This document shows positions 7,942-27,666 of a DNA stretch of 64,000 nt, piece by piece. The DNA is taken from assembly GCA_024231025.1 (NCBI GenBank), contig JAAEQW010000312.1:3238-67237 (forward strand). Reading direction: 5' to 3'. Source of the stretch: Candidatus Omnitrophota bacterium (lineage in GTDB: Bacteria > Omnitrophota > Gorgyraeia > Duberdicusellales > 4484-171). The translations under genes were made by a program, and so were the position numbers. Each line of letters opens with the position of its first letter. The stretch's first letter is position 1. The notes under the pieces are model-generated. The model was not told where the DNA came from. It ran no database searches and saw only the letters and a program-made list of their open reading frames with translations.

Positions 7942-9987
7942 TCAGGTAGGCCTGAGCCCTACAATGGTTTTAAATTCTTCCTCGTTGACTATGGGAATAT
8001 TCAATTTTTTAGCCTTCGCGTGCTTCGATCCTGGATTTTTACCCACGACTAAGTAATCAACATTTTTACTAATACTCGTTGTACATTTACCGGCTTTCGC
8101 CTCAACCGCTGCTTTTGCATTAGAACGAGAAAAATCAATAAGCTCACCAGTAAAAACAAATACTTTTCCTTTTAAATCGTTGTCGATAATTGTTTTCTCT
8201 GCGGCAACAAGTTTTAATCCCAATTTAGAAAAAAGTTGAATCATTTTTTTTATTTTTGTGGATGAAAAAAATTCCACTATTGAAGCAGCCATAACTGGGC
8301 CGATCTCATCAATGACCTCGAGCTCATTTTTATTCAACCCAAAAAACTTATCAATACTTTTAAATCGATTAGCAAGCAACATGGCAGCTCTCTCACCAAC
8401 ATGTTTTATCCCTAAACCATAGAGAACCTTCGACAACGGCTGTTCTTTACTTTTCTTAATTGCCCTAACTAAATTGTCTGCTCGTTTTTCCTTAAAAAGA
8501 GGCAGCTTTAAAAAATCTGCCTTTTCCAATTTATAAATATCAACAATTTGACCGACCATGCCAATATCCACCAAAGCATCAACTACGCTTTTGCCCATTC
8601 CTTCAATGTCCATTGCCCCACGAGAAGCAAAATGCCATAATGAACGTTTTATTTGAGCTGGACAATCAGGATTAGGACAATAAATGTAAACCCCATAAAA
8701 ACTCTTATCCTTGCCAAGACAAGTATTATCACTTTTTTCTTTTACGCTTAAAGTCTTACAAATCGGACACCTCCGAGGAGCCACAAATTTTACTTCTTTA
8801 CCGGTGCGCTTTGACGTTATCACTTTAACTATCTTAGGAATAACATCGCCCGAACGCTGCAGTAATATTGTATCCCCAATGCGCACATCGAGACGATTAA
8901 CCTCATCAAAGTTGTGCAACGTAGCCCGAGATATCATAACCCCCGCACATTCCACCGGCGTAAGATTCGCAACCGGAGTAAGAATGCCGGTTCTGCCTAC
9001 TTGAATCGATACGCTTACCACTTTCGTGGTGGTTTGATGAGCAGGAAATTTATAAGCTACTGCCCAGCGAGGCGATTTCGATGTAGCCCCCAATTCTTTC
9101 TGTTGATTAAAATCATTTACCTTAACTACCACTCCATCAACTTCATAATCTAAATTATCACGCCGCGTTTGCCAATAAAGACAATACTCTATTACCTCTT
9201 GTATGTTTCTACACACCTTATTCGCCGGATTAACACGCAAGCCCCATGTTTTTATCTTATTCAGAAAATCATTTTGCTTGGCGAAACCGCCGCCCTGCAT
9301 CCATCCAAAAGAATGCATAAAACAATTTAAATTTCTTTCAGGTAAAGACGAACTATCTAAAAGTTTTAAGGATCCGCTTGTAGCATTTCTTGGATTTGCG
9401 AACGGAGGGTCTCCACGCTTACTTCTTTGTCGGTTAAGATTGTTGAAATCAGTTTTCTGCATATATATTTCTCCACGAACCTCAAAAAATTTCGATAGAC
9501 TATCGCCACGAAGTTTTAAAGGAATTGATTTAATCGCACGAATGTTTGCAGTTACATCTTCACCAATTTGACCATCACCTCTGGTAGCACCCAAAATGAG
9601 TGCTCCGTCTTGATAAGTTAGCGAACAACTAACGCCATCAATCTTAAGTTCAACCATATACTCAAACGCCACATCACGCTTTATAGCCCGCTTTATTCTG
9701 CTTTCCCACTCTTTTAGCTCATCTATCGAATAAGTGTTATCTAGTGAGAGCATCTTCTCGCGATGGCTCACGGTAGAAAACCCTTCCAAAACTCCACCGG
9801 AAACTCTCTGCGTAGGAGAGTCATTAGTGATAAATTCCGGATGCTTCTCTTCTAAAGATTGAAGATTTTTGAAAAGTTCGTCATATTCTTTATCAGAAAT
9901 TTCCGGATCACTAATAACATAATAGCGCCAATCGTGATGCCGAATCGATTCCCGCAGTTTTTGTATTTGTTTTTCTACACTATTCAT
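7942..9987 (-). CDS. ligA: NAD-dependent DNA ligase
   Basis: 681 aa, adenylation motif KIDGVSCSLTY (KxDG), Zn-finger cysteines, HhH and C-terminal BRCT region. Confidence 0.93.
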   Translation of the reverse strand: MNSVEKQIQKLRESIRHHDWRYYVISDPEISDKEYDELFKNLQSLEEKHPEFITNDSPTQRVSGGVLEGFSTVSHREKMLSLDNTYSIDELKEWESRIKRAIKRDVAFEYMVELKIDGVSCSLTYQDGALILGATRGDGQIGEDVTANIRAIKSIPLKLRGDSLSKFFEVRGEIYMQKTDFNNLNRQRSKRGDPPFANPRNATSGSLKLLDSSSLPERNLNCFMHSFGWMQGGGFAKQNDFLNKIKTWGLRVNPANKVCRNIQEVIEYCLYWQTRRDNLDYEVDGVVVKVNDFNQQKELGATSKSPRWAVAYKFPAHQTTTKVVSVSIQVGRTGILTPVANLTPVECAGVMISRATLHNFDEVNRLDVRIGDTILLQRSGDVIPKIVKVITSKRTGKEVKFVAPRRCPICKTLSVKEKSDNTCLGKDKSFYGVYIYCPNPDCPAQIKRSLWHFASRGAMDIEGMGKSVVDALVDIGMVGQIVDIYKLEKADFLKLPLFKEKRADNLVRAIKKSKEQPLSKVLYGLGIKHVGERAAMLLANRFKSIDKFFGLNKNELEVIDEIGPVMAASIVEFFSSTKIKKMIQLFSKLGLKLVAAEKTIIDNDLKGKVFVFTGELIDFSRSNAKAAVEAKAGKCTTSISKNVDYLVVGKNPGSKHAKAKKLNIPIVNEEEFKTIVGLRPT

Positions 9988-9989
9988 AA

Positions 9990-10265
9990 TTAAAACAAAA
10001 TCCGAAAATCATCAAGATCACTTAATAAATCCTGCTCATTAACAGAGCAATCAACTATACCTCTACCAAAAACATCTTTTAGATCCTGCAAAAAAACCGC
10101 TAACTTCTTTTGCTCTCCTTTGGCGATAGCCTCAACTCTTCCATCGGGCAAATTTTTTACCCAACCCTTTATGCGATAACGATTAGCCAAATCACGTGTA
10201 GTAAAACGAAAACCAACCCCCTGAACGGCACCGGCAAAAAATATATGATAACACTTATCCATCAT
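9990..10265 (-). CDS. acyP: acylphosphatase
   Basis: Internal Met start ([45 protein letters not shown]) gives about 91 aa matching the acylphosphatase signature VQGVGFR...GWV.N..DG.V. The longer upstream extension in the ORF track is probably not translated. Confidence 0.8.
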
Positions 10266-11196
10266 CAAACTTTTCCTCGGTTTGCATTCGTTGCCCACAA
10301 GCAAAGGAATAAGCATCCATTTCCTTCTTGCCATCCGGCTGCAACCGTTGCACCCGCAGGACCTTATCACCAGTTGCAATATCTATACCATCTTTACTAA
10401 TCTTTACTATTGTTGCCGGTTGGCAATTAGGCGATTGATCAACCAATGCAGTTCGCATAATTTTTATTGTCTTTCCTTTATAGTATGTATAAGCAGATGG
10501 CCAACCCAAGGTAGCTCTAACGAGATTTCTTATCTCCAGCGCACTCCGGCCCCAATTGATCTTACCATCTTTTTTCTCTAGTTTAGCGGCAAAAGAAATA
10601 TTACCTTTTTGAGGTATCAGCTTCGCAGTTCCATCATTCACCGCAGAAATCGATTCATCAAGAAGCAAAGCACCTTCCCTAGCTAATTTAAGCGTCATAG
10701 AGGCTACATCATCTGTATCGGTGATTAAAACTTCTTTTTGACTAATAATATCTCCGCTATCTGTGCCTGTTTCTATCTTAAAAATGCTAACCCCAGTTAC
10801 TTTATCTCCATTGCAGATAGCATAACTTATCGGTGCTGCACCGCGATAACAAGGCAAGAGTGATGGATGCACCCCTAAGGATATCTTCTTAGAAAGCGAA
10901 AACACAACAGATGGTAAAATTTTTCCATAATCAGCAATAATAATAAAATCGGCATTTTCATCCTTTATTCTGCCAACTACATTATCATCTTTTAAACTAT
11001 GCGGCTTAATGCATGTTATATTATTTTTTTCAGCAAAATTAGAAATCTCTGTGGCAGTAATTTTCAAGCCACGACCTTTGGGGCGATTAGGCTGGGTCAC
11101 AATTAAAGATGGGGTTAAACCTCTTAAATGTAGCGTTTCTAAAACTACACGCGAAAATATATCACTGCCAAAATATATAAATTTCACTCGATTCAA
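10255..11196 (-). CDS. fmt: methionyl-tRNA formyltransferase
   Basis: 313 aa, formyltransferase N domain (IIFFGSDIFS-like start, [14 protein letters not shown]) and C-terminal domain. Confidence 0.9.
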
Positions 11197-14671: not shown

Positions 14672-15370
14672 CTAGCCCAAAGCCTTCAATATCTTAGCTC
14701 TATCAACGACAATGTACTCACCAGGACCTAAAACACCTAACAGGAGCTTTCCTATTCTTACCCTCTTAAGGGATTTTACACCAAAATTAAGACCCCTGAA
14801 TAACCGTCTTAGGTGCCGCTTCTTACCCTCAGCAACAACAACCGAACACTTACTTTCATATTCAGTTTGTTTAATGATTTTTATTCGCTTAACTCTTAAT
14901 AGGTCACCTTCGTTAGTGACACCCGCAATTGCCTTTGCGCAATCATTGGTAGTAAATCTACCTCTTACTGTTAGAACGTACTCCTTTTCTGTAACAAATT
15001 TCGGATGAGTCAACTCAAAACAAAGATCACCATCATTTGTGAGAATAAGAAGACCGGTAGAGTTTTTGTCTAGCCTGCCAACGGGATACAAACTTTTAAA
15101 TTTATTCTCAAGAAAATCAATTACTGTTTTATCAGCAAATTTGTCTTTTCTGGTTGTGGTTACCCCCTTTGGCTTATTAAAAATAATGTAAATTTTATCT
15201 TTACGATCAACCACCTTACCATTGACTAAAACTTTGTCACTTTCAGCAACTCTAAAAAACGGCTCTTTCACCACTTTGCCGTTTACACTAACTTTTCCTT
15301 GCTGGATTAAAAGATCCGCACCTCGTCGAGAAGCAAATCCACTTTTAGCTATGAATAAACTAAGTCGCAT
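14672..15370 (-). CDS. rRNA pseudouridine synthase (RsuA/RluB family)
   Basis: 232 aa, N-terminal S4 domain and catalytic motif PVGRLDKNSTGLLILTNDG. Confidence 0.85.
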   Translation of the reverse strand: MRLSLFIAKSGFASRRGADLLIQQGKVSVNGKVVKEPFFRVAESDKVLVNGKVVDRKDKIYIIFNKPKGVTTTRKDKFADKTVIDFLENKFKSLYPVGRLDKNSTGLLILTNDGDLCFELTHPKFVTEKEYVLTVRGRFTTNDCAKAIAGVTNEGDLLRVKRIKIIKQTEYESKCSVVVAEGKKRHLRRLFRGLNFGVKSLKRVRIGKLLLGVLGPGEYIVVDRAKILKALG

Positions 15371-16646
15371 ATGTTACCCCTTCACTAACCTTTTCAATGC
15401 AAACAGGAATTATTTCACCCAAAGGATAAGTCCCGTTTTTCTGAACCCTCAAATAGTTTTGAGTATAGCCACACACGTAACCGTCTTTTTGCTCTTCAAC
15501 AACCATATTCAGTGTTTTTGCAATAAATCGTTTTCTGTATTCTAATGAGAATTCTTTTGATAACTCATTTAAAACGCCGTAGCGTTCTTTATTTTTTGCG
15601 TAATCGGTCATTTTTAAATCTGAAAATGGGGTTTTCTCTCTTGGAGAAAATGTAAAAATGTGCATCCGCATGGGCTTTACCTGCTTTAGGAAGTCCACTG
15701 TATTAGAAAATGTTGCCTCATCCTCTGCGGGAAAACCAACCATAATATCGCAACTAATCGCGATATCAGGAGAAATCTTTCTAGCCTTATTTATTACGTC
15801 TAGGTACAGCTCTGTTGTTTCTTTTTTGTTCATTGCTTTAAGAATTTTATTGTCACAACTTTGAAATGGAAGATGAAGATGTGGGCAAAGCTTTGGATTA
15901 TTTAAGAAACTAAGTAACCGGTCATTTATTAATATTGGCTCCAAAGAACTTAGTCGCAAGCGTCCGACGTTTAATTCTAAAGTGCTATCTAGAAGATCAA
16001 CCAACGAAGAACCAAAATCACGACCATAAAGCCCCAGGTTAACCCCGCATAAAACTATCTCCCGATGTAAACTAGAAAGCCTCTTAACCTCTCTAAGGAC
16101 ATCATCAAGCTTGCGGCTACGTGATCGACCTCGTATATGAGGTATTTTACAAAACGAACAAAAATGATCACAACCATCCTGCACCTTAACAAACGCTCGC
16201 TGATTAGAAAAACTATTGACTTTGAGCGACCAAATACTTTTTTGGTCAGATTGACGATTTAGCACTATATCCACTAATGAATATTTGTCGTCCTGACTAA
16301 TTAGATAGTCAAAACCAAGGCCTTCTAAAGATGACTGATTAATCTGGACTAAACATCCGCAGATTGCTATCTTTGCGCTTGAATTCTCTTTCCTGATTTT
16401 TGATACCAATTCTTTTGATTTACTATCCGCACGAGCAGTGACACTGCAGCTATTAATTACGTATAGATCTGCAATGCCATCAGTAATAGTGCATCCGGCA
16501 TCAGTAAATTGCTCAATTAAAGCTTGGCTTTCGTATTGGTTTACCTTACAGCCGAGAGTATAGAATTTGATCCTCCTACACCCTTCGGGCTTCGAAGGAC
16601 AGGCTTTAATTGGCTTGTTTGAATTTTGTTCTGATTCTTTTGACAT
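15360..16646 (-). CDS. mtaB: tRNA methylthiotransferase (MiaB/MtaB/RimO family radical SAM)
   Basis: MTTase N domain (FYTLGCKVNQYES), radical SAM CDHFCSFCKIP and TRAM-like C-terminus. Start placed at ATG 16646 (MSKESEQNSNKP...); the track's upstream start is a TTG. Confidence 0.85.
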   Translation of the reverse strand: MSKESEQNSNKPIKACPSKPEGCRRIKFYTLGCKVNQYESQALIEQFTDAGCTITDGIADLYVINSCSVTARADSKSKELVSKIRKENSSAKIAICGCLVQINQSSLEGLGFDYLISQDDKYSLVDIVLNRQSDQKSIWSLKVNSFSNQRAFVKVQDGCDHFCSFCKIPHIRGRSRSRKLDDVLREVKRLSSLHREIVLCGVNLGLYGRDFGSSLVDLLDSTLELNVGRLRLSSLEPILINDRLLSFLNNPKLCPHLHLPFQSCDNKILKAMNKKETTELYLDVINKARKISPDIAISCDIMVGFPAEDEATFSNTVDFLKQVKPMRMHIFTFSPREKTPFSDLKMTDYAKNKERYGVLNELSKEFSLEYRKRFIAKTLNMVVEEQKDGYVCGYTQNYLRVQKNGTYPLGEIIPVCIEKVSEGVTYAT

Positions 16647-16734
16647 ATTGTTTCCGTTGTTTAGCAAGTCCTTACGGTTCTAGTAAATTGTTGTGATATT
16701 ATAACAAAATAAACCTATTTGGAAAGAAATTATC

Positions 16735-16925
16735 TGGCGGCAGGGAAAGATATTAAGGGTTCCCTTCCCTTTTTAGGAGGATGAGGCAAGCGCATCCCGT
16801 AAAAACACTTCACGTTAACGGGACAGGCGCCGGAAGCAACGGATACGCCTCTGGCGTAGCAGTCTGACGACTGCGCTTGCCGAGGGAGGAATTTTGTCTC
16901 TCCTCTGTTATAATTACGATTTTCA
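16735..16925. ncRNA. GC-rich structured non-coding element, candidate ncRNA of unknown class
   Basis: A ~190 nt stretch much more GC-rich than its surroundings. Nested complementary segments: GGAGGAGAG/CTCATCCTCC, GGCAAGCGCA/TGCGCTTGCC (10 bp), ACGCC/GGCGT, TCCCGT/ACGGGA. Plus-strand hairpin GGGAAAG...CCTTCCC followed by TTTTT at 16745-16775. No credible protein; the listed 70 aa ORF is low-complexity. Confidence 0.35.
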
Positions 16926-16956
16926 CTGAAAATAACAAACAAATATTATCTATTTC

Positions 16957-17073
16957 TTAATAGGCGCCAGTATAATCTCTGCACACATCATCCTGAACCT
17001 CAACTACAAACAAACTTACAAAACAAGCAAACACAAAACATAAAATTCCCAAAAATACAACCTTTCTCATCAT
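16957..17073 (-). CDS. small hydrophobic peptide (38 aa), translationally coupled to upstream TPR gene
   Basis: Unlisted ORF MMRKVVFLGILCFVFACFVSLFVVEVQDDVCRDYTGAY. Strong SD AAGGAGAGC overlaps the stop codon of the 17081..18727 gene. Confidence 0.35.
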   Translation of the reverse strand: MMRKVVFLGILCFVFACFVSLFVVEVQDDVCRDYTGAY

Positions 17074-17080
17074 GCTCTCC

Positions 17081-18727
17081 TTAATGCTCTTTTACATCAA
17101 ATATGCCGTCATCAATATAATCATTTAAAGAAACAATTTCTATCTGCCAATCTTGAGTTAAATGTGCTGTATCCTGAATAAAACCTTTTCTTTTTCCCCG
17201 TAACGGAAAATGCAACCCTTCAACCTCCTGCACCGATTTAATAACAGTTTCTGTCGCTAAATCTTCTTTTCGTCCACTCCCAAACACTCCACGCCAATAC
17301 TCACGTTCCATAACTATGAGATTAAATTTAGTATCAATTAAAAACTCTATTCTTACTATTGGTGGCCAATTGTCCTCTTGTGTTTCATTATAGTTAGCAG
17401 TTACCAAATAAAGGCTGGAATTATGTTCAGTATATAAGTCTTTCAACTCTTCAGGGATATTCTCTATTCTTTTAATCCCGCTCAGACGTAATTTTCTAGA
17501 TTCGATATAACCTTCGATGTCTAATTTACGTAGACTCATAAGATAATCAACAGCTCCAGGTTGCATATCATAGGGATCATCCACCTTGTTAGTTCTGCCG
17601 TCAACCATATATAGTTTATTTTCGGTAAAAATACTTATAGCGCGCCTAGTAATGGTCTTTAAATAAAAAGGGCTTTTATAATAGGCCTCTTCAAGCGTTT
17701 CGCTCGTGCTCCCGGAAACTTTCTTATAATGTATTGTTTGAATCCTACCCATGTCATCATTGCAGGTCTTCACTAGTCCGTTTAATGTTTTATCGCTATC
17801 TGAAAGCTGATAAAGGGACGATCGTGATAAGTCATAATTTTCTAGCCTCTTAACTGCCTTATTTTTATATTTTAGTTTCTCGTCTTGTGAGATTCCGTCA
17901 TATAATAGGATTAATTCTGTATCTTCGCCGCTAATAAGCTGCTTCATCATCTCCTTCTGAGATTCACCTCTCTCTAGGACTCTCACTCCAAGCTCAGCAG
18001 CATCATAGTGACCAATAGTTTTTCTCAAAAATTCTAAATATTGCTGATCCTGAGCAATCTCCGAAGATAATTCAAAAGTTTTTTCTAAATGATACATTAT
18101 CCGCAAACATAACTCCTCGGAAAAATACTTCTGCTGTCCAATCTCATTATAACAATCAACTAAGCGATAATGTATTTTTGATAAGTCATTATTCAAAGTT
18201 TGGCGGCCGATTATTTCAGGGTTAGCTAGCATGATATTGATTGCATCTGAAAAATATTTGGTAGCATCAAGGTAACGTTTCTTGTTGTAACAATATTCAC
18301 CCAACCAATAATTAATCTCTGGGTGATTTGGATATTGAGTGTATTTCTCCTGGAGAATCGCTAAGCCCTGTTCAATGTTATCAATCCTCCAATAGTCCAA
18401 TACAACAGCAATCGCCTCTTCTATTTCTCTCATTTCTCTTTGGCTGAAACTGGCTTGTTTCATTGTGCTACTGCTAGAAACCGATCTTTGGGAAATATCT
18501 GTATAATGCCCTATGTCCTGTTCTGTACTTCCTTCTACATAATCAATGTCATCCAAATAATATGTCAAAAGCACGCCATGGATATTAGCCTTTATAAAAT
18601 CTACATTTCTTTCAATAATTTCTCCCTCTACCTTTTTCCCATCCTTTAGATGAATAGTGGCGCAGAAACAAACACTGACAGAAGAACTTGTAATAAATAA
18701 AATCAAAATAAGTATTTTCAAAAACAT
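17081..18727 (-). CDS. secreted TPR-repeat protein with conserved N-terminal beta-rich domain (paralog of 21930..23234)
   Basis: 548 aa, signal peptide MFLKILILILFITSSSVSVCFC. N-domain IHLKDGKKVEGEIIERNVDFIKANIHGVLLTYYLDDIDYVEG, then TPR-like helices. Confidence 0.6.
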   Translation of the reverse strand: MFLKILILILFITSSSVSVCFCATIHLKDGKKVEGEIIERNVDFIKANIHGVLLTYYLDDIDYVEGSTEQDIGHYTDISQRSVSSSSTMKQASFSQREMREIEEAIAVVLDYWRIDNIEQGLAILQEKYTQYPNHPEINYWLGEYCYNKKRYLDATKYFSDAINIMLANPEIIGRQTLNNDLSKIHYRLVDCYNEIGQQKYFSEELCLRIMYHLEKTFELSSEIAQDQQYLEFLRKTIGHYDAAELGVRVLERGESQKEMMKQLISGEDTELILLYDGISQDEKLKYKNKAVKRLENYDLSRSSLYQLSDSDKTLNGLVKTCNDDMGRIQTIHYKKVSGSTSETLEEAYYKSPFYLKTITRRAISIFTENKLYMVDGRTNKVDDPYDMQPGAVDYLMSLRKLDIEGYIESRKLRLSGIKRIENIPEELKDLYTEHNSSLYLVTANYNETQEDNWPPIVRIEFLIDTKFNLIVMEREYWRGVFGSGRKEDLATETVIKSVQEVEGLHFPLRGKRKGFIQDTAHLTQDWQIEIVSLNDYIDDGIFDVKEH

Positions 18728-18766
18728 AATTACTCCCTGAATTTTCGGCTTACGGTTTAACCAAGA

Positions 18767-21121
18767 TTATAGAGAATCTTCCATACCTGCAATCTCGACC
18801 CTCTTAACTTCGGCATTAAAATCACACCTTAATTTTTTTACTTGAGGGTGTTCTAGGGAATATTTGGTTAAAGGTCTCAACAAGACATCCTGTATTGCCC
18901 GATTTAAAAACCGCCCTCCATACTCTACACTAAACCCCTGAGTGATTATATAATTATAAATATCTTCAGAAATTATAATCTCTTTCCCTTTTTCTTTAAG
19001 TCTACCTATTACTTGGTCTATCTTTTGTTTAGCGATTTTTTTAATTACCTCCTCGGAAAGAAAATTAAAATAAAGTATATCGTCTAAACGATTAAGGAAC
19101 TCGGGAGCAAAAAATTTCTTGATTTCCGGCTCGATCTGTACTTTTATATAAGATTGTATCTTGTCAGGATCAATGTTTTTGATATCACTTTCCTTAAGAT
19201 TCTTTACACCTAAATTAGATGTCATAATTATTGTTGCAAAGCTAAATGAAACAGTTTCCCCCTTGGCATCTGTTAATCTTCCATCATCGAACATCTGCAA
19301 AAACAACCTTAAAACATCGGGGTGTGATTTTTCTACCTCATCAAACAAAATAACAGAATAAGGGTTTGCCTTAACAACATTTGTCAATACACCGCCCTCT
19401 TCGCTACCTTGATAACCAGGTGGAGAACCAATCAATTTTGATGCATTATGCTTTTCCATAAATTCAGACATATCAAACCTAAGCAACTGACTTTCGCTGC
19501 CCAGTAATGACTCAGCCAAAGCCTTAGCTAGTTCTGTCTTTCCTGTACCGGTAGAACCAACTATTAAGAAAACACCATCGGGTCGTTGTGGCTTAATATC
19601 CATCTCGTACTTGGTAAGCTGAATAACATCGACTATCCTTCTAATTGCTTCATCCTGACCGTGCACTTTTTTCTTTAGTTTATCTTCTAAATCTAAAAAT
19701 ATCTTTTCCTGAGAAAAAAGAATCTGATTTACCGGAATCCTCATAACATCAGATACAATCTGAGCTATCACATTAGCATCAACATTTTTTCCATCTACCT
19801 CAGATAACGAAACCCTACTTGCAGCCCTGTCTAAAAGAGATAATGCCTTACCCGGCAAACACCTATCTTTAATATACTTTGACGAGATATCAATAGCCGC
19901 TTCTACCGCGTCATTGTCAATTGGAACCTGGTGATATTCACTATATTTTCCTGCTGCATTTTGTAAAATTTTATGAACCGTAGCTATATTTGGCTCATCT
20001 ATTCGTATAACTTCAAAACCTCTAGCTAAAGATGTATCTTTTTCAACTTGTTTTTGATAATCACTTATAGTAGTTGTCCCAATACAACATAGTTGACCTC
20101 GCAATAAAGCTGGCTTAAAAAGATTGGCTGCGCTTGATACACCTTCACCACCTGCCCCAATCATCTGATGTATATCAGAAAGAAAAAGTATTATATTCTC
20201 ATCATCCTTACATTCTTCTAATATTTTCTGAATCCGTTCTTCAAACTGTCCTCGTAATGTAGTTCCAGCGATTAATCCTCCTAAATTAATTTCGATAATC
20301 TTCTTACTCTTTAAACGTTCGGATGCTTTACCCTTCACTATCCTATCCGCTAAACCATCCACGATGGCAGTTTTACCAACCCCTGGCTGACCTATTAAAA
20401 TTACATTATTTTGCCCTTGCCTCAAAAGAACTTCTTCAACCGCGGTAATCTCCTTCTCTCTTCCTACAATTTCAGTAAACTTACCATCCTCGGCTAACAA
20501 ATTTAGGTTACTGCCGTATTTATCTAAAGTTTTTTCCCTAAAATTAGAAAAAGACTTATATGGTTTCGCTTGTTCACACTTCTGAGCTTCTCGAATAGCT
20601 TCTTTCTCAAAGAAGCTCATCGAACTGTCAATTTTTCTATTTTCCATTATGGCGTCAACATGCTTAATGATACGTGCAAACTCAACAAGACATTCCTGCT
20701 TTATGCCAAAAGTATCCTCAAATAATTTCAACACACCGTTATACTTATCTCGATACTTAAATATCGCTCTTAAAATATGCTCCTCACACACCACTACAGA
20801 ATCGCTATCTTTGGCTTCTTTTTCTACATGTTTGAAAAAGATCTCCTCTTTCTTCCAATTTTCTTCTGTAGGCTCATCTTCCTTTGTGTCGTAAATATAA
20901 CCATGTAGTAAGTTTTTCACGGCGGGTGTACATAAAGAAAAACGCCTAGATAACATAATATAGAAAAGATGTTTTAAATCAGCAAAAGCCAAAAAAGTTA
21001 GTTCATAGTTAACTGGTGGATCAACGTGACTAAAAGCTGGTGATAACTTCCTAGCTTTATTAACAATCGTCTCCGCTCCTTTATTAAACTGCATCTCTGT
21101 ACCCTTAACGAAGAATTTCAT
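18767..21121 (-). CDS. ClpA/ClpC-like double-ring AAA+ ATPase (no M-domain, no obvious ClpP-docking IGF/IGL loop)
   Basis: 784 aa. Clp_N-like repeats, D1 Walker A GQPGVGKTA, D2 Walker A GSTGTGKTE, D2 motifs GYQGSEEGGVLT and ILFDEVEKSHPDV...DDGRLTD. D1-D2 spacing is ClpA-like. Confidence 0.7.
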   Translation of the reverse strand: MKFFVKGTEMQFNKGAETIVNKARKLSPAFSHVDPPVNYELTFLAFADLKHLFYIMLSRRFSLCTPAVKNLLHGYIYDTKEDEPTEENWKKEEIFFKHVEKEAKDSDSVVVCEEHILRAIFKYRDKYNGVLKLFEDTFGIKQECLVEFARIIKHVDAIMENRKIDSSMSFFEKEAIREAQKCEQAKPYKSFSNFREKTLDKYGSNLNLLAEDGKFTEIVGREKEITAVEEVLLRQGQNNVILIGQPGVGKTAIVDGLADRIVKGKASERLKSKKIIEINLGGLIAGTTLRGQFEERIQKILEECKDDENIILFLSDIHQMIGAGGEGVSSAANLFKPALLRGQLCCIGTTTISDYQKQVEKDTSLARGFEVIRIDEPNIATVHKILQNAAGKYSEYHQVPIDNDAVEAAIDISSKYIKDRCLPGKALSLLDRAASRVSLSEVDGKNVDANVIAQIVSDVMRIPVNQILFSQEKIFLDLEDKLKKKVHGQDEAIRRIVDVIQLTKYEMDIKPQRPDGVFLIVGSTGTGKTELAKALAESLLGSESQLLRFDMSEFMEKHNASKLIGSPPGYQGSEEGGVLTNVVKANPYSVILFDEVEKSHPDVLRLFLQMFDDGRLTDAKGETVSFSFATIIMTSNLGVKNLKESDIKNIDPDKIQSYIKVQIEPEIKKFFAPEFLNRLDDILYFNFLSEEVIKKIAKQKIDQVIGRLKEKGKEIIISEDIYNYIITQGFSVEYGGRFLNRAIQDVLLRPLTKYSLEHPQVKKLRCDFNAEVKRVEIAGMEDSL

Positions 21122-21169
21122 TCTACCTCACTTTCAAGATATCTTTTCATAAATGGAAAAACACGCATT

Positions 21170-21880
21170 TTAATCCTTTAGTAATTCTTGAGGTACAAAT
21201 TCTTCGATTAATTCTTTCTGAGAAACTGCAGGAGTTGTATATGCTCCGCCTAAATCATAAAGTAAGTTTTCTGCTTCATCATGCTTAAATTCTCTAGCCA
21301 AAGTAACTGCGGTGGCATTATTTTTATCTTTAAAATGTAATTTTGCTCCTTCAGAAAATAGCAATTTAATAACGTCCGTAAAACCTAGACATGCTGCTTC
21401 CATGATAGCAGTTCTCCCGTATTTATTTTGTTTGTTAATATCAACCCCCGCAAAAACAATTAACTTAATGATTTCCAAATTATTCTTATAAACAGCCCAA
21501 ATCAAAGGAGTTTTATCATTATTATCTTCTATACCCAAAATAGCACTATTTTTTATCAACAATTTAACCATATCTTCATGTTCCATCATTACAGCAATCG
21601 CAATTGCTGTTCTCCCATCCTCATTCTTAGCATCAACTTTAGCTCCTCTGGAAATCAATAATTCTGCTATCTCAACATTCCCTTCAGCAGCAGCAAACAT
21701 AAGTGGTGTATCATCGTATTTAAATCTTTTGTTTACATCAAACCCACCATCAACTAATTCTTCTATTTTTGAAACTTTCTTAAGCTTAATGCACTTTATA
21801 AATTCACTATCTATAGATTGAGCCAATACATTAAAGAGTATTCCAAAAGAGATTAATGATAGTATAAATAATTTTAGCAT
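21170..21880 (-). CDS. secreted ankyrin-repeat protein
   Basis: 236 aa, signal peptide MLKLFILSLISFGILFNVLAQS, then about five ANK repeats (TPLMFAAAEGNVEIAELLISRGAKVDAKNEDGRTA...). Confidence 0.75.
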   Translation of the reverse strand: MLKLFILSLISFGILFNVLAQSIDSEFIKCIKLKKVSKIEELVDGGFDVNKRFKYDDTPLMFAAAEGNVEIAELLISRGAKVDAKNEDGRTAIAIAVMMEHEDMVKLLIKNSAILGIEDNNDKTPLIWAVYKNNLEIIKLIVFAGVDINKQNKYGRTAIMEAACLGFTDVIKLLFSEGAKLHFKDKNNATAVTLAREFKHDEAENLLYDLGGAYTTPAVSQKELIEEFVPQELLKD

Positions 21881-21929
21881 AAGTCTCCTTATTAAACCTT
21901 ATGTATTATATCCTCATTACCAACCTATT

Positions 21930-23234
21930 TTACCTTCTTTTTTCTGCCTTGTCTAATATAGCTAATACTTCCTTGGCTAGATCCGAAGAAGGATTTATTT
22001 CTAAAGCCTTATAGATGTCATCTTTGGCTTTATTATAGTCCTTGAGATGAGAATACGCCAATGCACGATCAATTAAAGCAACGAATTTAATTTGAAATGA
22101 TCCCAACTTGATAGCTTTTGTGGCATTTTGGACACTTTGCTCAAAATCATTATCCTCATAATTAACCTGTGCTTTAAATGAATACGGTTCAGAATATCTG
22201 GGTTCAATAGAAATAGCTTCATCCAAATCTTCATACGCATCAGCAATATTTCCTTGCTCTGAAAAAACCTTAGCACGATTTAAACAATACAGGGGATTTC
22301 CTGGATCATATTTTTTTGCCTGACTATATAAAATGAGAGCCTTACTATAATCTCCATTAGCAAAAGCAACAAGCCCTTGAGCATTAAACTTCTCAGCTAA
22401 TATGGCATTTCGATCCCCATTTAAAACCCTCAAAAGTAAACCTTCTTTTTTACTCTTTAAAAAATAATGTTCACCTATGCCAAAGCTACGCCCACCTAAT
22501 TGAACAAAATCTCCTTTTCTAATATCAAACCAGTAATAATTCCTATCATTTAATTTAATCAATCCAAATGAATGTGGGCCTAAACTGTTTTCATCCCACT
22601 CCTTGATACCTTCTCCAATTAGTTGCGCTAAAATAAATTCCAACTTTAGAGCCCGCATAAAAATCCATCCTAATTGTGTAAATCCAACACAATTTATTCT
22701 TCTAGTATCAAAAACTTCACGTAAATCGTAAACACCTATATCATAATCAAAGAGTGATAGAAGTTTATCTTGTATGGACTGTGCAATTTCTATCTCCAAA
22801 TCAACAAGATATTTTTTGTTAGATTCCCCCTCTAATGCTTTCCGTAAATGTTTGAGTTTATCATATTTTTTAATCAAATTTAAAGATCTCGCCATATCTA
22901 TAATCTTATCGCTAACTTCAACATCATATCCTAACTCATCAACATATTTTTTAATTGAACTAACGATATGCTCTTCCGACGAAGAAATAAAAGACTGAAC
23001 TACTATATGTTTTCCATCAATGCTCTCAATATCGTCTAAATAATAAGTTAGAGGCAAACCTTCAATATCAATCTTTATACTCTCATTATTTCGCTCAACA
23101 ATTTCCCCTTCTACAACCTGACCGCTTTTAAGCTTGATGGTTTCAGGATAAGCAAGATAACTTGGCAAAATTAACAACAACAAAATATAAACTATTTTTC
23201 TCATTTTCTTCTCTAATAAAATCTGACTACTCAT
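21930..23234 (-). CDS. secreted TPR-repeat protein with conserved N-terminal domain (paralog of 17081..18727)
   Basis: 434 aa, signal peptide. N-domain IKLKSGQVVEGEIVERNNESIKIDIEGLPLTYYLDDIESIDGK, C-terminal TPR repeats. Confidence 0.65.
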   Translation of the reverse strand: MSSQILLEKKMRKIVYILLLLILPSYLAYPETIKLKSGQVVEGEIVERNNESIKIDIEGLPLTYYLDDIESIDGKHIVVQSFISSSEEHIVSSIKKYVDELGYDVEVSDKIIDMARSLNLIKKYDKLKHLRKALEGESNKKYLVDLEIEIAQSIQDKLLSLFDYDIGVYDLREVFDTRRINCVGFTQLGWIFMRALKLEFILAQLIGEGIKEWDENSLGPHSFGLIKLNDRNYYWFDIRKGDFVQLGGRSFGIGEHYFLKSKKEGLLLRVLNGDRNAILAEKFNAQGLVAFANGDYSKALILYSQAKKYDPGNPLYCLNRAKVFSEQGNIADAYEDLDEAISIEPRYSEPYSFKAQVNYEDNDFEQSVQNATKAIKLGSFQIKFVALIDRALAYSHLKDYNKAKDDIYKALEINPSSDLAKEVLAILDKAEKRR

Positions 23235-23284
23235 TAAATATATATCTATTTATTAGTCACAACAATAGAATTACCACCTAGCAG

Positions 23285-23452
23285 CTATTCCCTCCAATCC
23301 TCAATAATCAACCTTTTCCCTACCTTTTTCACAACTACCTTTTGCTTCAACCTCCACCCCAACTCTTCAATATAATCAGTAGGTATGGTTACATAATATG
23401 TGTATCTTCCTGTTTTTGTGATTTTTCGAATTTGTTTCTTTTTGTTTGGCAT
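23285..23452 (-). CDS. AbrB/MazE/SpoVT-family swapped-hairpin DNA-binding protein (55 aa)
   Basis: Unlisted ORF MPNKKKQIRKITKTGRYTYYVTIPTDYIEELGWRLKQKVVVKKVGKRLIIEDWRE, fitting the G..x..V.IP....ELG...GD.V pattern. SD GGGAGG 5-6 nt upstream of ATG. Confidence 0.6.
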   Translation of the reverse strand: MPNKKKQIRKITKTGRYTYYVTIPTDYIEELGWRLKQKVVVKKVGKRLIIEDWRE

Positions 23453-23535
23453 CTTTACCTCCCATAGTACGTTGTATAGTACGTAGTGTTTTCATTGATA
23501 CGTATTATACTACGTATTGCTAATTTCGGCAAGAT
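23453..23535 (-). promoter_or_regulatory. sigma70-like promoter overlapped by TACGTA-type operator repeats upstream of the AbrB-like gene
   Basis: Minus strand: -35 TTGCCG (23527-23532), 17-nt spacer, -10 TATAAT (23504-23509) embedded in TACGTAgTATAATACGTA. The leader carries ACGTACTAT x2. At least four TACGTA/ACGTAC sites lie within 60 bp. Confidence 0.5.
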
Positions 23536-23779
23536 TTTCCTCCAAAAGTCGCTGATTTAAGAATTCTCCGCTCTTTAATGCCTCCTGCGGATCTTCTTCG
23601 CCTTTTACCACTTAGCAGCGCATTAAGATAACTGAAGAAGCGCCTAGCGACTGGGGGTAATGAGCCAAACGGCAGTGAAGGCAAACAGTGTCACCTATCC
23701 CCGCCCAAGCGGGGCGGTACAGGTTATATTATAAGCAGTGGAAGGATATGTTTGAGCGCTCTGTATAATTCTAACCAAA

Positions 23780-23880
23780 GGTCAGCCGAGAGTAAAGAAT
23801 TTGATCCTTCGACTTCGCTCATGACTTCCTTCGGTCGCCCTAAGTGGCTTGTTTGAATTTTGTTTTTTGTTTTCCGGCAT
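23780..23880 (-). pseudogene. duplicated fragment of the mtaB 5' end (start codon + 32 codons), repeat copy B
   Basis: Minus-strand translation MPENKKQNSNKPLRATEGSHERSRRIKFFTLG* parallels MtaB MSKESEQNSNKPIKACPSKPEGCRRIKFYTLGC. DNA shares GGTCAGCCGAGAGTA.AGAATTTGATCC and GGCTTGTTTGAATTTTGTT with 16549-16630. Confidence 0.8.
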
Positions 23881-23972
23881 TTTTCGAATTTACCCCCTTA
23901 GAAAAACATCGAGCGAATACCCCTCACGCACTTGGTCTTCAGCAGATATGCGGATATAGATTGCGATTTTCA

Positions 23973-24422
23973 TCAAAATAAATCTCTCTCGGGATTTTTT
24001 TCTTTAACTAAACTAACTATTTTCTTAATCAAACTGTCAGCTGTTTCTAAACATGCTTCTGCTTCGCTATGAGTAACGTGATTTTTTGATTCATATATAA
24101 AATCGTGCCTTCTCCTTCTCAGTCTATTAAATTTGCTAACCAAGGTATCGTATTCATGGCCCAATAATAATTTCGTAACCTCAATAATCGTCTTATGCGA
24201 TCTTTTTGTTGTCGGCAGATAACCTCTCGAATACATAAGTGCCCGACCAGCTCTAATCATAGCATGATAGGCAATCGCCAATGACCAAGTTAAGTCAATC
24301 TTAAGATTAGCGTCCGCTGTTTTCAAGTCTTTTAATGATCTTTGCAGCTGCTTATTGACCTGTTTAAAGTCGGGCGTTTGCTTCTTTATAAGCTTATCTC
24401 TTAGAAATTTTTCGTAATTCAC
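23973..24422 (-). CDS. hepT: HEPN-domain toxin (HepT-like)
   Basis: 149 aa, Rx4-6H motif in RLRRRRHDFIY. Overlaps and sits downstream of an MNT gene, the canonical mntA-hepT arrangement. Confidence 0.8.
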   Translation of the reverse strand: MNYEKFLRDKLIKKQTPDFKQVNKQLQRSLKDLKTADANLKIDLTWSLAIAYHAMIRAGRALMYSRGYLPTTKRSHKTIIEVTKLLLGHEYDTLVSKFNRLRRRRHDFIYESKNHVTHSEAEACLETADSLIKKIVSLVKEKNPERDLF

Positions 24423-24972
24423 CTTTATCTCCTATAAGCATTATCTTCTTCTCTTTTAGAATACCTAAAATAAATGGCTCCTCTTCCTTAATCTCTTGAG
24501 CAAACTCTTTCAATTTATAAAACTTATAATTTATCTCCCTTTGCAGTTTCTCTTCTAATTTATCTAACTTTTTGATTAGCTGACTCTCGTCTGGATTACC
24601 AATAATCATAAGATCTATATCGGAAAGGTAGTTCTCTTTACCTTTAGCGTAAGAACCATAAATAAAAGCAACCTTTATGCCCTTAAGCTCTTCTAGTTTT
24701 GCCCTCAGGCTCGCCTCCACGCCGACAGTTTTAAAAGTAATGCTCTTTAGCTCCTTATAAAGAGGGTAACTCTTATTCACCTTAAAATACCTAGCGTTTG
24801 CTTTATGTTCGCTGTTTAAAACACCTTCGCATACTAAATTATTAATGGTCCGTTGAAATACACCCGGCTTTTTGCCTAAAATCCTACCTACCTCCTGCAT
24901 ATAAAAAGATTTCTCAGGATTAGTAAAAAATAACCTTAGTAATTCTGCCCTATTTTTTGTCAGTGGTTTCAT
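24394..24972 (-). CDS. mntA: minimal nucleotidyltransferase antitoxin (MntA-like) with N-terminal wHTH
   Basis: 192 aa, nucleotidyltransferase motif VAFIYGSYAKGKENYLSDIDLMIIG (GS..x..DxD), N-terminal winged-helix region, 29-nt overlap with the HEPN gene. Confidence 0.8.
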   Translation of the reverse strand: MKPLTKNRAELLRLFFTNPEKSFYMQEVGRILGKKPGVFQRTINNLVCEGVLNSEHKANARYFKVNKSYPLYKELKSITFKTVGVEASLRAKLEELKGIKVAFIYGSYAKGKENYLSDIDLMIIGNPDESQLIKKLDKLEEKLQREINYKFYKLKEFAQEIKEEEPFILGILKEKKIMLIGDKGELRKISKR

Positions 24973-25121
24973 GAATACCCCCTCTCATATCTATTACGCA
25001 TATAATTGTATGCAATTTGCATATGCCTGTCAAGATAATTCTTCCTTTCAAATGGTATACCACAAATGCATTTTTGTAGCTATGGGTAACAATTAATTAT
25101 GCTGCATTAGGGTTAAAAAAA

Positions 25122-25186
25122 GGGTCAGCCGAGAGTATAGAATTTGACCCTCCTACGCACTGTTGGCTTCGAAGGACAGGCTTTAA
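25122..25186 (-). pseudogene. duplicated fragment of the mtaB 5' end, repeat copy C
   Basis: Minus-strand translation IKACPSKPTVRRRVKFYTLG* matches MtaB residues PIKACPSKPEGCRRIKFYTLGC. DNA shares GGGTCAGCCGAGAGTATAGAATTTGA.CCTCCTAC and CTTCGAAGGACAGGCTTTAAT with 16549-16612. Abuts the rsmE stop codon. Confidence 0.8.
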
Positions 25187-25894
25187 TCATCTTAATAAAT
25201 CCTTAATTAATCCGACACAAAATATTGCCGCTGTCTCAACTCTTAGAACATTATCTGAAACATTAACAGCCGCGAAGTCATTTTTCGTAAACGCATCTTT
25301 TTCATCAATTGAAAAACCACCCTCCGGACCAACAGCAACAAAAAAGGTTTTAGCATCGCTCCTGACTGCCTTCTTCAGCACTACACCATCTAAATCAGCA
25401 TAAATCTTTGCATCAGAATCAATATTAATTAAATCATCGAATTTAAAAACATTATCTAGCTTAGGAATCCAAAGACGTCCTGATTGCCGAGAAGCATCAA
25501 TAATAATTGAACGCCAGCGATCAAGTTTTTTTGATGAAATTTTAGCGCTCGCTGTCCGTTGACAAATAAACGGTATAAGCCGGTTCACACCAAGCTCAGT
25601 TGCTTTTTGCAAAATAAAATCTATTTTACCTTCTCTGATCAATGGAAATCCCAAAGTAATTTCAATTAAATTCTGGTCTTCGTTTCTTAGAGAGATCTCT
25701 TTTTTTAAAGTTATTGTTGATTTAGCAACAGATTCTATTCGACACCCATACTCTTTTCCCTGTCCATCAAAAACAAGTAACTCATCGTCAACTTTAAGAC
25801 GCAAAACATGCCTTATCTTATGCACTATTTTACCATCGTCAACTTTTATAGAGTTAGCAATTTTCTCCGGCTTAATGTAAATTCTTTCTTTCAT
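25187..25894 (-). CDS. rsmE: 16S rRNA (uracil1498-N3)-methyltransferase
   Basis: 235 aa, RsmE PUA-like N domain and SPOUT C domain (LIREGKIDFILQKATELGVNRLIPF). Confidence 0.85.
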   Translation of the reverse strand: MKERIYIKPEKIANSIKVDDGKIVHKIRHVLRLKVDDELLVFDGQGKEYGCRIESVAKSTITLKKEISLRNEDQNLIEITLGFPLIREGKIDFILQKATELGVNRLIPFICQRTASAKISSKKLDRWRSIIIDASRQSGRLWIPKLDNVFKFDDLINIDSDAKIYADLDGVVLKKAVRSDAKTFFVAVGPEGGFSIDEKDAFTKNDFAAVNVSDNVLRVETAAIFCVGLIKDLLR

Positions 25895-27384: not shown

Positions 27385-27460
27385 TGGTGGACCGAAGCGG
27401 AGTCGAACCGCCGACCTCCTCGTTGCGAACGAGGCGTTCTCCCAACTGAACTACCGGCCC
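27385..27460 (-). tRNA. tRNA-Ala (anticodon CGC)
   Basis: Reverse complement GGGCCGGTAGTTCAGTTGGGAGAACGCCTCGTTCGCAACGAGGAGGTCGGCGGTTCGACTCCGCTTCGGTCCACCA has a G3:U70 pair (Ala identity), anticodon loop TTCGCAA, encoded CCA. Confidence 0.9.
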
Positions 27461-27462
27461 AT

Positions 27463-27592
27463 AAAATTTACGAAGTAAATTTTAGAGCATTGGAGCATTC
27501 GATCATTAGAGCATTAGAAAAATGCAACAATGCGGTCAAATGTTCTAATGTTCACATTTAAAATAACCCGTAAAATTTACGAAGTAAATTTT
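27463..27592. repeat. two copies of a 21-bp AT palindrome (AAAATTTACGAAGTAAATTTT) plus GC hairpin GTCCCGAAACTTCGGGAC
   Basis: Copies at 27463-27483 and 27572-27592; AGAGCATT repeated three times between them; GTCCCGAA/TTCGGGAC hairpin at about 27596-27613. Confidence 0.6.
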
Positions 27593-27666
27593 AAAGTCCC
27601 GAAACTTCGGGACGATCTATTGCTCAATTGTTCTATTTTCACTCTACCAAATCATCTAAATAAAAA

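Follow-up and report, generated by a model that had tools for sequence, protein, structure and literature searches.

What has come between rsmE and the tRNA-modification gene mtaB, two genes otherwise conserved as neighbours, and why does a toxin–antitoxin (TA) pair stand there between pieces that resemble the mtaB start? The question arises in a 64,000-nucleotide stretch of contig JAAEQW010000312.1 from a Candidatus Omnitrophota bacterium (the window, to which all positions without a locus name refer), where all genes of the rsmE–mtaB region lie on the minus strand. An earlier note on this DNA took the pair to be a stranded integrated TA cassette with its attachment site in the mtaB 5' end, and that idea is borne out by the rsmE–mtaB arrangement in relatives, by the stub of a recombinase gene inside the insertion and by related loci in which the same kind of TA pair is followed by a recombinase gene. 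We put at roughly 80% the probability that positions 16549–25125 are the fossil of two serial integrations by one family of large serine recombinases (LSRs), followed by decay. Direct support comes from three copies of the mtaB start with a sharp boundary at a TG dinucleotide, the ancestral adjacency of rsmE and mtaB, the LSR stub, the homology of both element arms (P and P') to those of intact LSR elements and the horizontal mobility of the LSR family. The locus itself is an ordinary kind of decayed genomic island, while the LSR family is widespread, undescribed and unusual in its architecture. Such an insertion would explain the split of a deeply conserved gene pair in an Omnitrophota genome, and an element origin would account for the odd N-terminus of MtaB and for a TA pair between pieces of a housekeeping gene.

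A split gene pair and three copies of the mtaB start

Open reading frames (ORFs) and Pfam matches give the order, in the direction of transcription, as Memo/AMMECR1, rsmE, copy C of the mtaB start, the nucleotidyltransferase gene MNT, HEPN, copy B, five cargo genes and mtaB, whose present start is copy A. The features that the argument needs are listed below; P and P' stand for the two arms of the element's attachment site and B and B' for those of the native site, module 1 (16549–23782) is the part next to mtaB and module 2 (23783–25125) the part next to rsmE.

25187–25894, minus strand: rsmE, upstream flank of the ancestral pair (Pfam Methyltrans_RNA 1.7e-41, PUA_4)
25126–25190, minus strand: copy C, apparently what remains here of the native mtaB 5' end (attL, consisting of the B arm and TG), reading MIKACPSKPTVRRRVKFYTLG and a stop; its ATG (25190–25188) overlaps the rsmE TGA as ATGA, it is 90% identical to 16549–16610, and it lacks the element-type 5' untranslated region (5' UTR), ATG and extension
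25120–25125, minus strand: ACCCTT, putative P'-arm stub of module 2 directly after TG, equal to the opening 6 nt of the arm ACCCTTGGTT... that is conserved in L169 and L177–L181; the rest of the arm is gone
24394–24972, minus strand: MNT nucleotidyltransferase antitoxin with an N-terminal winged helix-turn-helix (wHTH), 192 aa (Pfam NTP_transf_2 2.2e-10, Polbeta 1.6e-10; PADLOC PDC-M05A 5.8e-53)
23973–24422, minus strand: HEPN toxin, 149 aa, overlapping MNT by 29 nt (Pfam HEPN 3e-8; PADLOC PDC-M05B 4.8e-15)
23905–23973, minus strand: LSR gene stub, the first 23 codons, MKIAIYIRISAEDQVREGYSLDV, then a deletion; the sole such place in the island by tblastn with six LSRs (57–83% identity, E 1e-5 to 9e-8)
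23783–23880, minus strand: copy B, which imitates the mtaB start (MPENKKQNSNKPL..RRIKFFTLG and a stop) and is putatively element-borne, as the P arm of module 2; at the TG it meets the P' arm of module 1, and both copy A and the P arm of L178 have its ATG and CAAAATTCAAA region
23735–23782, minus strand: P' arm of module 1, ACCTTTGGTTAGAATTATACAGAGCGCTCAAACATATCC..., aligning with ACCCTTGGTTnnTTyTTTACAAnnnnTCAAACCnTTCC of L169, L177–L181 and L166
16549–16646, minus strand: copy A, putative P arm of module 1 and present mtaB 5' end (MSKESEQNSNKPIKACPSKPEGCRRIKFYTLG), ending at the TG crossover; its ATGTCAAAAGAATCA start and 5' UTR match the P arms of L169 and L180 (MSKES...)
15360–16548, minus strand: body of mtaB (B' side), intact (Pfam UPF0004 2.6e-19, Radical_SAM 7.3e-21; 57% to MtaB of Omnitrophota CP070797.1)

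That the two genes were once adjacent follows from the relatives. By tblastn, rsmE lies 0–60 nt upstream of mtaB in the closest relatives (L001 and L081–L084; L-numbers denote the related loci compared with the window), in the majority of the remaining Omnitrophota loci and in many Firmicutes and Fusobacteria, and it stands immediately upstream of mtaB in L001, L002, L004, L007, L009, L012, L014, L015, L026 and L081–L087. Because relatives have rsmE directly before mtaB, the whole of 16549–25125 (~8.6 kb) is most simply read as an insertion between the two genes, built of two modules. The unoccupied site that membership in the LSR elements implies is thus present in relatives. It is a different one from the site predicted in the earlier note, where rsmE was to be followed directly by the AbrB/TPR genes: relatives show rsmE–mtaB, and the AbrB, TPR, ankyrin and ClpB-like genes are cargo of module 1. 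The G+C content of the cargo is slightly lower (31–37%) than that of the flanks (36–42%). Loci L005, L041 and L102, with 1.9–4.4 kb between rsmE and mtaB, were set aside as unrelated, none having a detectable copy of the mtaB start; the inserts of L005 and L041, whose ORFs were read, resemble ordinary chromosomal DNA, with a radical-SAM gene and genes for glycosyltransferases and a TPR membrane protein.

The three copies lie on the same strand. In a repeat search of the window, 16549–16610 is 90% identical to 25126–25187 and 61% identical to 23783–23844, and 16602–16649 is 77–81% identical to 23836–23883. A 25-nt core, GGATCAAATTCTATACTCTCGGCTG, occurs exactly three times in the 64 kb at up to one mismatch (24/25 matches in copy B) and in none of 100 shuffles, so the resemblance is far from the chance level that, by the earlier note's own account, would have sunk its interpretation. 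In the three-way alignment, copies A, B and C are identical through ...ACTCTCGGCTG and share a common end, ...CTCGGCTG; after this boundary (...GGCTG), the gene reads TAAGG, and copies B and C read ACC(T/C)TT, leading to an immediate TGA stop. The two non-gene copies translate as MPENKKQNSNKPLRATEGSHERSRRIKFFTLG and (M)IKACPSKPTVRRRVKFYTLG, each followed by a stop. Repeat search, core search and alignment together agree with what had first been noticed here, namely that two copies in the same orientation flank the mntA–hepT pair and leave the gene at the same point, and the translations given then were reproduced.

The copies are not of one kind. Copies A and B have a common 5' UTR, ATG and extension, and copy C has none of these; copy B alone resembles the gene copy in the upstream ATG and extension region. 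The ribosome-binding region once ascribed to both flanking copies is absent from copy C, which starts at the ATG that overlaps the rsmE stop. Since an ATG overlapping the rsmE TGA is the layout expected of a native start, copy C appears to be the original start of mtaB, and copies B and A would be element-borne mimics, each with its own ATG and N-terminal extension. The older description of the repeats as mtaB fragments then holds for copy C alone, and neither copy B nor the present gene start would be a site duplication from the insertion. Relatives' native MtaB proteins start a few codons before (K/R)x(F/Y)xT(L/F)GCKVNQ and have short N-termini.

The recombinase stub and the elements it belongs to

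The stub at 23973–23905 ties the island to a particular recombinase. It is identical to the LSR of L169 at 18 of 23 residues, covers the YIRxS region with the catalytic serine and begins at the HEPN stop, the very place where the intact LSR of L169 begins; a frameshift and deletion then lead into copy B. No other LSR fragment was found in 16500–25300 and no LSR in the whole window, which holds no gene with the Resolvase, Recombinase and zinc-ribbon domains of a functional one, and we therefore regard the island as a remnant and not as a functional member of the family. The earlier statement that no integrase or transposase lies between the repeats is right as to a working recombinase and has to be amended for this 23-codon remnant; of the tyrosine and serine recombinases that it proposed, the stub and the MNT–HEPN–LSR relatives favour the serine type and not the tyrosine type. 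On these sequence comparisons, the MNT–HEPN pair would have come as cargo with an LSR element that has since lost its recombinase gene by deletion.

In L169, a 541-aa LSR (Resolvase, Recombinase, Zn_ribbon_recom) comes after MNT and HEPN with no gap between, and its ORF runs into a UPF0004/radical-SAM/TRAM gene starting MSKESKTYEKSPRKVYIRTFGCQMN; MtaB of the window likewise starts MSKES. At each of the eight distinct intact-LSR loci that were read (L169 and L175–L181), the LSR ORF terminates within a UPF0004/radical-SAM gene or 4 nt into it. This gene belongs to the MiaB type (CQMN), and miaA and hflX usually come after it. As called, the LSR ORFs read through the P arm out of its frame and terminate a few nucleotides past TG inside miaB (stop regions: L175 2016–2024, L176 2626–2634, L177 11672–11680, L178 11642–11650, L180 11654–11662); as the ORF crosses TG, the recombinase would end in one C-terminal tail when integrated and in another when excised. 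In L166–L168, MNT–HEPN and an LSR pseudogene precede a site MPTKSRTFAQKKPSVYIRTFG, stop, TG/ACCTTCTATAC (the slash marks the boundary), in the same direct order as copy B of the window; this P–TG–P' site would fit an attP and an array junction alike.

The arms agree as well. A P arm consists of a 5' UTR, an ATG, a short extension rich in K, E, S and N and codons mimicking xYIRTFG, and it ends ...TTCGG(C/T/A)TG; of the window's P arms, ATGTCAAAAGAATCA is common with L169 and L180, and CAAAATTCAAA (QNSN) with L178. The P' arm, of ~45 nt, reads ACCCTTGGTTnnTTyTTTACAAnnnnTCAAACCnTTCCTTTT and is followed by a G+C-rich non-coding stretch. The junction TG/ACCyTTGG and the P' arm are conserved between module 1 and the LSR loci, which gives the sites the make-up of hybrid attachment (att) sites, with element-specific inner arms around a short crossover that is probably the TG. 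The family thus appears to have its target where MiaB/MtaB-type methylthiotransferase genes begin, in their conserved T(L/F)GC codons. Searches returned 773 LSR homologues at E <1e-40, from Omnitrophota, Aureabacteria, Elusimicrobia and unclassified metagenome-assembled genomes, many of them on short contigs. The LSRs are 64–90% identical between loci whose MiaB and MiaA proteins are 39–62% identical, a difference implying that the recombinase module moves horizontally. Its cargo in related loci includes type I restriction–modification, SIR2-HerA, SMC/AAA_21, OLD-like AAA_15, DUF6119, HigB and an M78 peptidase. In IMG/VR viral contigs, the junction pattern, the LSR protein and an attP-like pattern gave chance matches, one truncated LSR (L174) or an unrelated LSR, and the element is not represented among these viruses. 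Neither the family nor mtaB or miaB as a serine-integrase target was found in the literature searched, a collection that is incomplete.

A highly conserved 60-aa MerR/excisionase-like helix-turn-helix protein (RYNLSEAAKELGLTRQGLYYWIKKGWVTPKRDY..PVFT; L176 274–456, L178 7323–7505, L179 7003–7185, L180 7900–8082, L181 5378–5557), a candidate recombination directionality factor, heads most intact modules; the window has none. Perfect inverted repeats of 176–208 bp bound the LSR module in L177 (6779–6954/11497–11672), L178 (6932–7108/11466–11642), L179 (6590–6797/11477–11684), L180 (7554–7731/11477–11654) and L181/L183 (L181 5024–5201/8477–8654), and repeats of 88% identity do so in L169 (1097–1274/3945–4121). 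Inside them lie the MerR/excisionase-like protein, a single slot for variable cargo and the LSR. Every repeat is made up of the LSR 3' end and the P arm and ends exactly at TG, the right copy adjoining miaB and the left, inverted copy adjoining the P' arm. The window and L166 have the same parts in direct order. A flip of the module at its two TG sites would interconvert the direct and inverted layouts on the P' side, and the LSR module may be invertible; all ten of ten contigs with the same LSR show one orientation and none the flipped one.

A further-reaching proposal, which we hold to be tentative and rather doubtful, takes the island as the fossil of a so far undescribed group of compact (3.6–5 kb) LSR elements of Omnitrophota and neighbouring phyla. 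These would have a single variable slot for defence or TA genes and would hijack the MiaB/MtaB start with a mimic of promoter plus N-terminus that regenerates the target, permitting unlimited serial accretion; their intact state would be bounded by the perfect 176–208 bp inverted repeats, one at the gene and the other at the P' arm and structured non-coding region, and the LSR would also flip its own module or need two P-type ends. If true, module flipping or the need for two P ends would be a mode of action not described for serine integrases.

How the island may have formed

According to our preferred reconstruction, two integrations and later decay, a circular element would carry an attP of the form P–TG–P' and meet a native site B–TG–B'. 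Its P arm would bring a promoter, 5' UTR, ATG, short N-terminal extension and mimic of the target's first codons, and its P' arm would begin ACCyTTGG, with the effect that the displaced native fragment meets a TGA at once. Recombination at the TG would leave the native 5' end, TG and P' on one side (copy C) and P, TG and the gene body on the other, keeping mtaB intact behind an element-supplied start. A second element would then enter the P–TG–B' junction left by the first, which is plausible because P imitates B over the last 25–30 nt; the resulting sites would be B–TG–P' of module 2 (C), P of module 2–TG–P' of module 1 (B) and P of module 1–TG–B' (A). This is the order of the two integrations that we infer. 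Each of them would give mtaB a new promoter-like site (now 16725–16698), ATG and N-terminal extension, leaving the TLGC motif and the rest of the protein untouched. Later deletions would have taken codons 24 to the end of the module 2 LSR and the greater part of that module's P' side, and would have cleared module 1 of any recombinase, while MNT and HEPN were retained at full length, as would be expected if such a module is addictive or defensive.

The crossover at which serine integrases exchange strands is 2 bp long. The sole difference between the P arms of the two modules within the core lies 14 nt from the boundary, which would confine the exchange to the last 11 nt, and a weak dyad, AC-N4-GG-N4-CC-N4-GT, read by eye, is centred on TG in the P–TG–P' of L177; taken together, these make the TG at the sharp boundary the likely crossover.

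Several points weigh against this history. Module 2 retains only 6 nt of the P' consensus. Among 160 mtaB loci, no intact LSR of the family stands beside a KVNQ-type mtaB, all intact members being at CQMN-type miaB. The best MtaB matches are that of CP070797.1 (57%) and metagenome contigs at 51–54%; genome and metagenome scans gave none above 57% and 54%, respectively, so that no polymorphic empty site could be shown. A look-up of the exact RsmE protein found no record of it. The position of the crossover is read from sequence boundaries and the weak dyad, and the inverted-repeat layout of intact members is not what a simple attP × attB model predicts; no native miaB 5' remnant was seen within 7–10 kb at the intact-element loci. 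Finally, the 62 nt of copy A next to the crossover are 90% identical to the native copy C, with the differences clustered in a 9-nt patch, and this likeness needs an extra step, which may have been gene conversion between the direct repeats C and A or an earlier capture of host sequence.

The modules of such an array should by now be immobile unless an LSR is supplied in trans. The best of the alternatives, which we nonetheless consider improbable, holds that this is what happens, and that the modules are living recombinase-less cassettes with usable att-type sites, moved by an LSR elsewhere in the genome after the model of staphylococcal cassette chromosomes (SCC) and their Ccr recombinases, or of a cis-mobilizable element (CIME) and a resident integrative and conjugative element (ICE). 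The window does have the form of att-flanked cargo in tandem modules at one target: the modules adjoin at copy B, module 2 has the LSR stub only, and module 1 has both its P' and its P arm and no recombinase, neither an LSR nor a MerR-like fragment being detectable in it by tblastn. All three sites keep the 25-nt core at up to one mismatch, the P' arm of module 1 matches the family consensus over ~45 nt, the LSR family is abundant in Omnitrophota metagenomes (the 773 matches), and SCC recombinases do move tandem cassettes that have no recombinase of their own (PMC11470126). Against this stand the lack of an LSR in the 64-kb window and the P' arm of module 2, cut to 6 nt, which makes copy C unlikely as a working attL; moreover, the sites where the family's LSRs have so far been seen are of the miaB type, with a B' half (TGyCArATGAA) unlike that of mtaB (TGTAAGGTAAAC).

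Far harder to maintain is that the 25-nt identity block served as the core of another recombinase, for example a tyrosine integrase encoded outside the window, with the LSR stub as unrelated cargo. Imperfect direct repeats of tens of nucleotides are indeed typical of tyrosine integrases, which also often restore the target's 5' end, as in the dusA islands (PMC4482086). The stub, however, occupies the very position beside the P arm that intact LSRs have, the same junction and arms accompany an LSR in eight other loci, and coding mimicry of the conserved TLGC region explains the identity block; Pfam found no Phage_integrase match among the island proteins or the called genes of related loci, the latter having no tyrosine-recombinase match at all.

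We give equally little credence to an origin without any site-specific system, by local duplication or by Campbell-type homologous recombination of DNA carrying an mtaB 5' fragment. A locus of that appearance exists: in L131, a hicAB-like pair lies between near-identical 63-bp copies of the mtaB start, with the repeat extending 7 nt past TG and no recombinase present. In the window, however, copy B is only ~40% identical to the gene in its middle part and nearly identical in the core, a pattern not expected from duplication and drift, and both non-gene copies continue into the same non-gene triplet and into element arms common with LSR loci from other samples. L131 (9410–10024) belongs to a high-G+C organism; its copies, identical at 62 of 63 positions, cover the mtaB ribosome-binding site and first 13 codons and enclose hicB/hicA-like genes at 9495–9948. 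It probably records a different kind of event. Integron cassettes (no attC-like site or G/TT junction noticed), Tn7-like or insertion-sequence insertion (no short target duplication noticed, the only terminal inverted repeats being those of the LSR modules) and a group II intron were set aside without a dedicated test.

Contents of the modules and comparison with known systems

The remaining features of the two modules are the following.

24977–25038, minus strand: promoter/operator region of the MNT–HEPN operon, with a promoter-like TTGACA-17-TACAAT (11/12 matches, 25033–25005); 79% identical over 62 nt to the region upstream of the L169 MNT
23453–23734, minus strand: G+C-rich non-coding stretch after the P' arm of module 1 (blastn of L178 against window 23787–23661: 70% over 138 nt, E 2.4e-10)
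17081–23452, minus strand: cargo of module 1, encoding an AbrB/MazE-like protein of 55 aa, a TPR protein of 434 aa, an ankyrin protein of 236 aa, a ClpB-like double AAA+ protein of 784 aa and a 548-aa protein (ORFs, Pfam); absent between rsmE and mtaB in relatives
16785–16881, plus strand: small RNA-like motif, GGCAAGCGCA ... GACGACTGCGCTTGCC, also in related elements
16698–16725, minus strand: promoter-like site within module 1 at its right end, with ~52 nt from it to the mtaB ATG downstream, TTTCCA-16-(TG)TATAAT (10/12 matches, extended -10)

The TA pair has the sequence marks of a type VII system, namely adjacent overlapping genes with GSx(9-13)DxD in MNT and Rx(4-6)H in HEPN. Its MNT motif GSx10DID is intact (GSYAKGKENYLSDID at residue 106), as is the HEPN motif RLRRRRH at residue 100, both as first noticed in the earlier note. 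The HEPN protein is 82–83% identical to those of L166 and L169 and of equal length; MNT has >1300 homologues, 70–83% identical and all of ~192 aa, and an exact copy of the protein is encoded on an NCBI contig of an Omnitrophica metagenome-assembled genome. Like the MntA-HepT (PDC-M05) systems, the pair has MNT before HEPN, overlapping genes, GSx10DxD and Rx4-6H motifs and a strong match to both PDC-M05 profiles; it differs in the N-terminal wHTH of MNT, in filling the cargo slot of an LSR element and in being known here from sequence alone. L170 has two different MNT–HEPN pairs in tandem (8001–10854), 0.9 kb apart and beside a giant surface-type protein, neither with the TG/ACC junction; this TA family thus also occurs outside LSR elements.

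In module 1, the 548-aa (17081–18727) and 434-aa (21930–23234) proteins have a common N-terminal module of ~60 aa, a signal-like segment followed by I.LK.G..VEGEI.ERN..IK..I.G..LTYYLDDI, and the ankyrin and ClpB-like proteins give weak PADLOC candidate matches (PDC-M72A and PDC-M37B/DolB); these four proteins may form one unit. The G+C-rich non-coding stretch of ~300 nt recurs in an AT-rich family (L169 740–1050, L177 6420–6730, L178 6560–6885, L180 7130–7505, L181 4640–4975); it has no Rfam, tRNA or tmRNA match, and covariation speaks weakly for a fold. There was no Rfam match in the island, the related loci or this G+C-rich region, and ARAGORN gave no tRNA or tmRNA beside the P' arms; on these negatives the P' side is no known RNA-gene target. 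A regex search for the RNA-like motif, GGCAAGCGCA ... GACGACTGCG(A/C)TTGCC, located it on the minus strand in L177 (6302–6363 and 2750–2816), L178 (6478–6539) and L180 (7024–7090); its closing stem is conserved and its inner hairpin shows compensatory changes, with no Rfam match.

The window contains a degraded two-module array at mtaB in Omnitrophota, of a known kind of island. The closest parallel in target and mechanism is Burkholderia phage JC1 (Bcep22-like), whose serine recombinase inserts the phage at rimO's 5' end, the phage ATG keeping RimO in frame (PMC9144972); conserved N-terminal residues of RimO are kept, and in related prophages the integrase gene overlaps the target gene (PMC9144972). 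Both cases have an LSR acting at the first codons of a MiaB-family methylthiotransferase gene, rimO being this family's third member, and an element that supplies the new ATG. JC1 differs in being a complete phage, in its Burkholderia host and rimO target, in an 18-bp overlap and in an attP upstream of the integrase gene; the window, in contrast, has mtaB as its target (miaB in the intact relatives), an Omnitrophota host, tandem modules, a lost recombinase and no phage genes, and in its family the P arm stands at the LSR gene's 3' end and gives the target protein an N-terminal extension. The family's LSR is only generically related to phage LSRs (up to 32% identity). rimO is a recorded target of other integrative elements too (PMC4482086; PMC7192596). 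The dusA islands likewise integrate into the 5' end of a tRNA-modification gene and supply a new 5' end while the old one remains as a remnant (PMC4482086, Farrugia et al. 2015). They resemble the window in this 5'-end replacement, the far-side remnant and the imperfect direct repeats flanking the island, and differ in having tyrosine integrases, a 21-bp semi-conserved att site, Proteobacteria as hosts and an integrase still in place; none of the island proteins has a match to that recombinase type in Pfam.

Serial integration at one site is also what builds the CIME and accretion arrays of ICESt1/ICESt3. At rlmH (orfX), Ccr LSRs build and move tandem SCC/SCCmec-like cassettes, some of which have no recombinase and many of which carry defence genes (PMC11470126). 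The island is like these arrays in that serial integration at a single site in an RNA-modification gene would regenerate a usable site and build an array, with some cassettes recombinase-less and carrying defence or TA genes. SCC cassettes, however, enter the 3' end of rlmH in staphylococci, whereas the site of the window is a 5' end, so that the element must bring promoter and start codon; and they are moved in trans, whereas such movement of the island's modules would be hypothetical. A target-mimicking arm would be a simple account of how cassette arrays build up at one site. The LSR family is abundant and horizontally moving, with at least 773 homologues, belongs to a poorly studied phylum and has a defined target in a gene family of an essential pathway; its members mark integration hotspots that gather defence genes in Omnitrophota, and att arms that can be read from metagenomes make it a source of attP/attB pairs for serine-integrase engineering.

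Some smaller observations may be added. In the Bacillota locus L027 (395–1900), a remnant reading MKTVAFYTLG and a stop meets a TG/ACCGAAC junction, followed by 1.3 kb of cargo with a 263-aa AraC-HTH/GyrI-like gene and then by mtaB with a 30-aa N-terminal extension (MEKNNNEKIVQNLNS...); this is the layout of the window's island in another phylum, without an LSR. Over the whole window (1–64000), nearly all ORFs of at least 110 aa are on the minus strand, and the few on the plus strand all overlap minus-strand ones. Beside the tRNA-Ala gene (27385–27460), a 23-nt palindrome, TAAAATTTACGAAGTAAATTTTA, occurs at 27462–27484 and again at 27571–27593, 109 nt apart.

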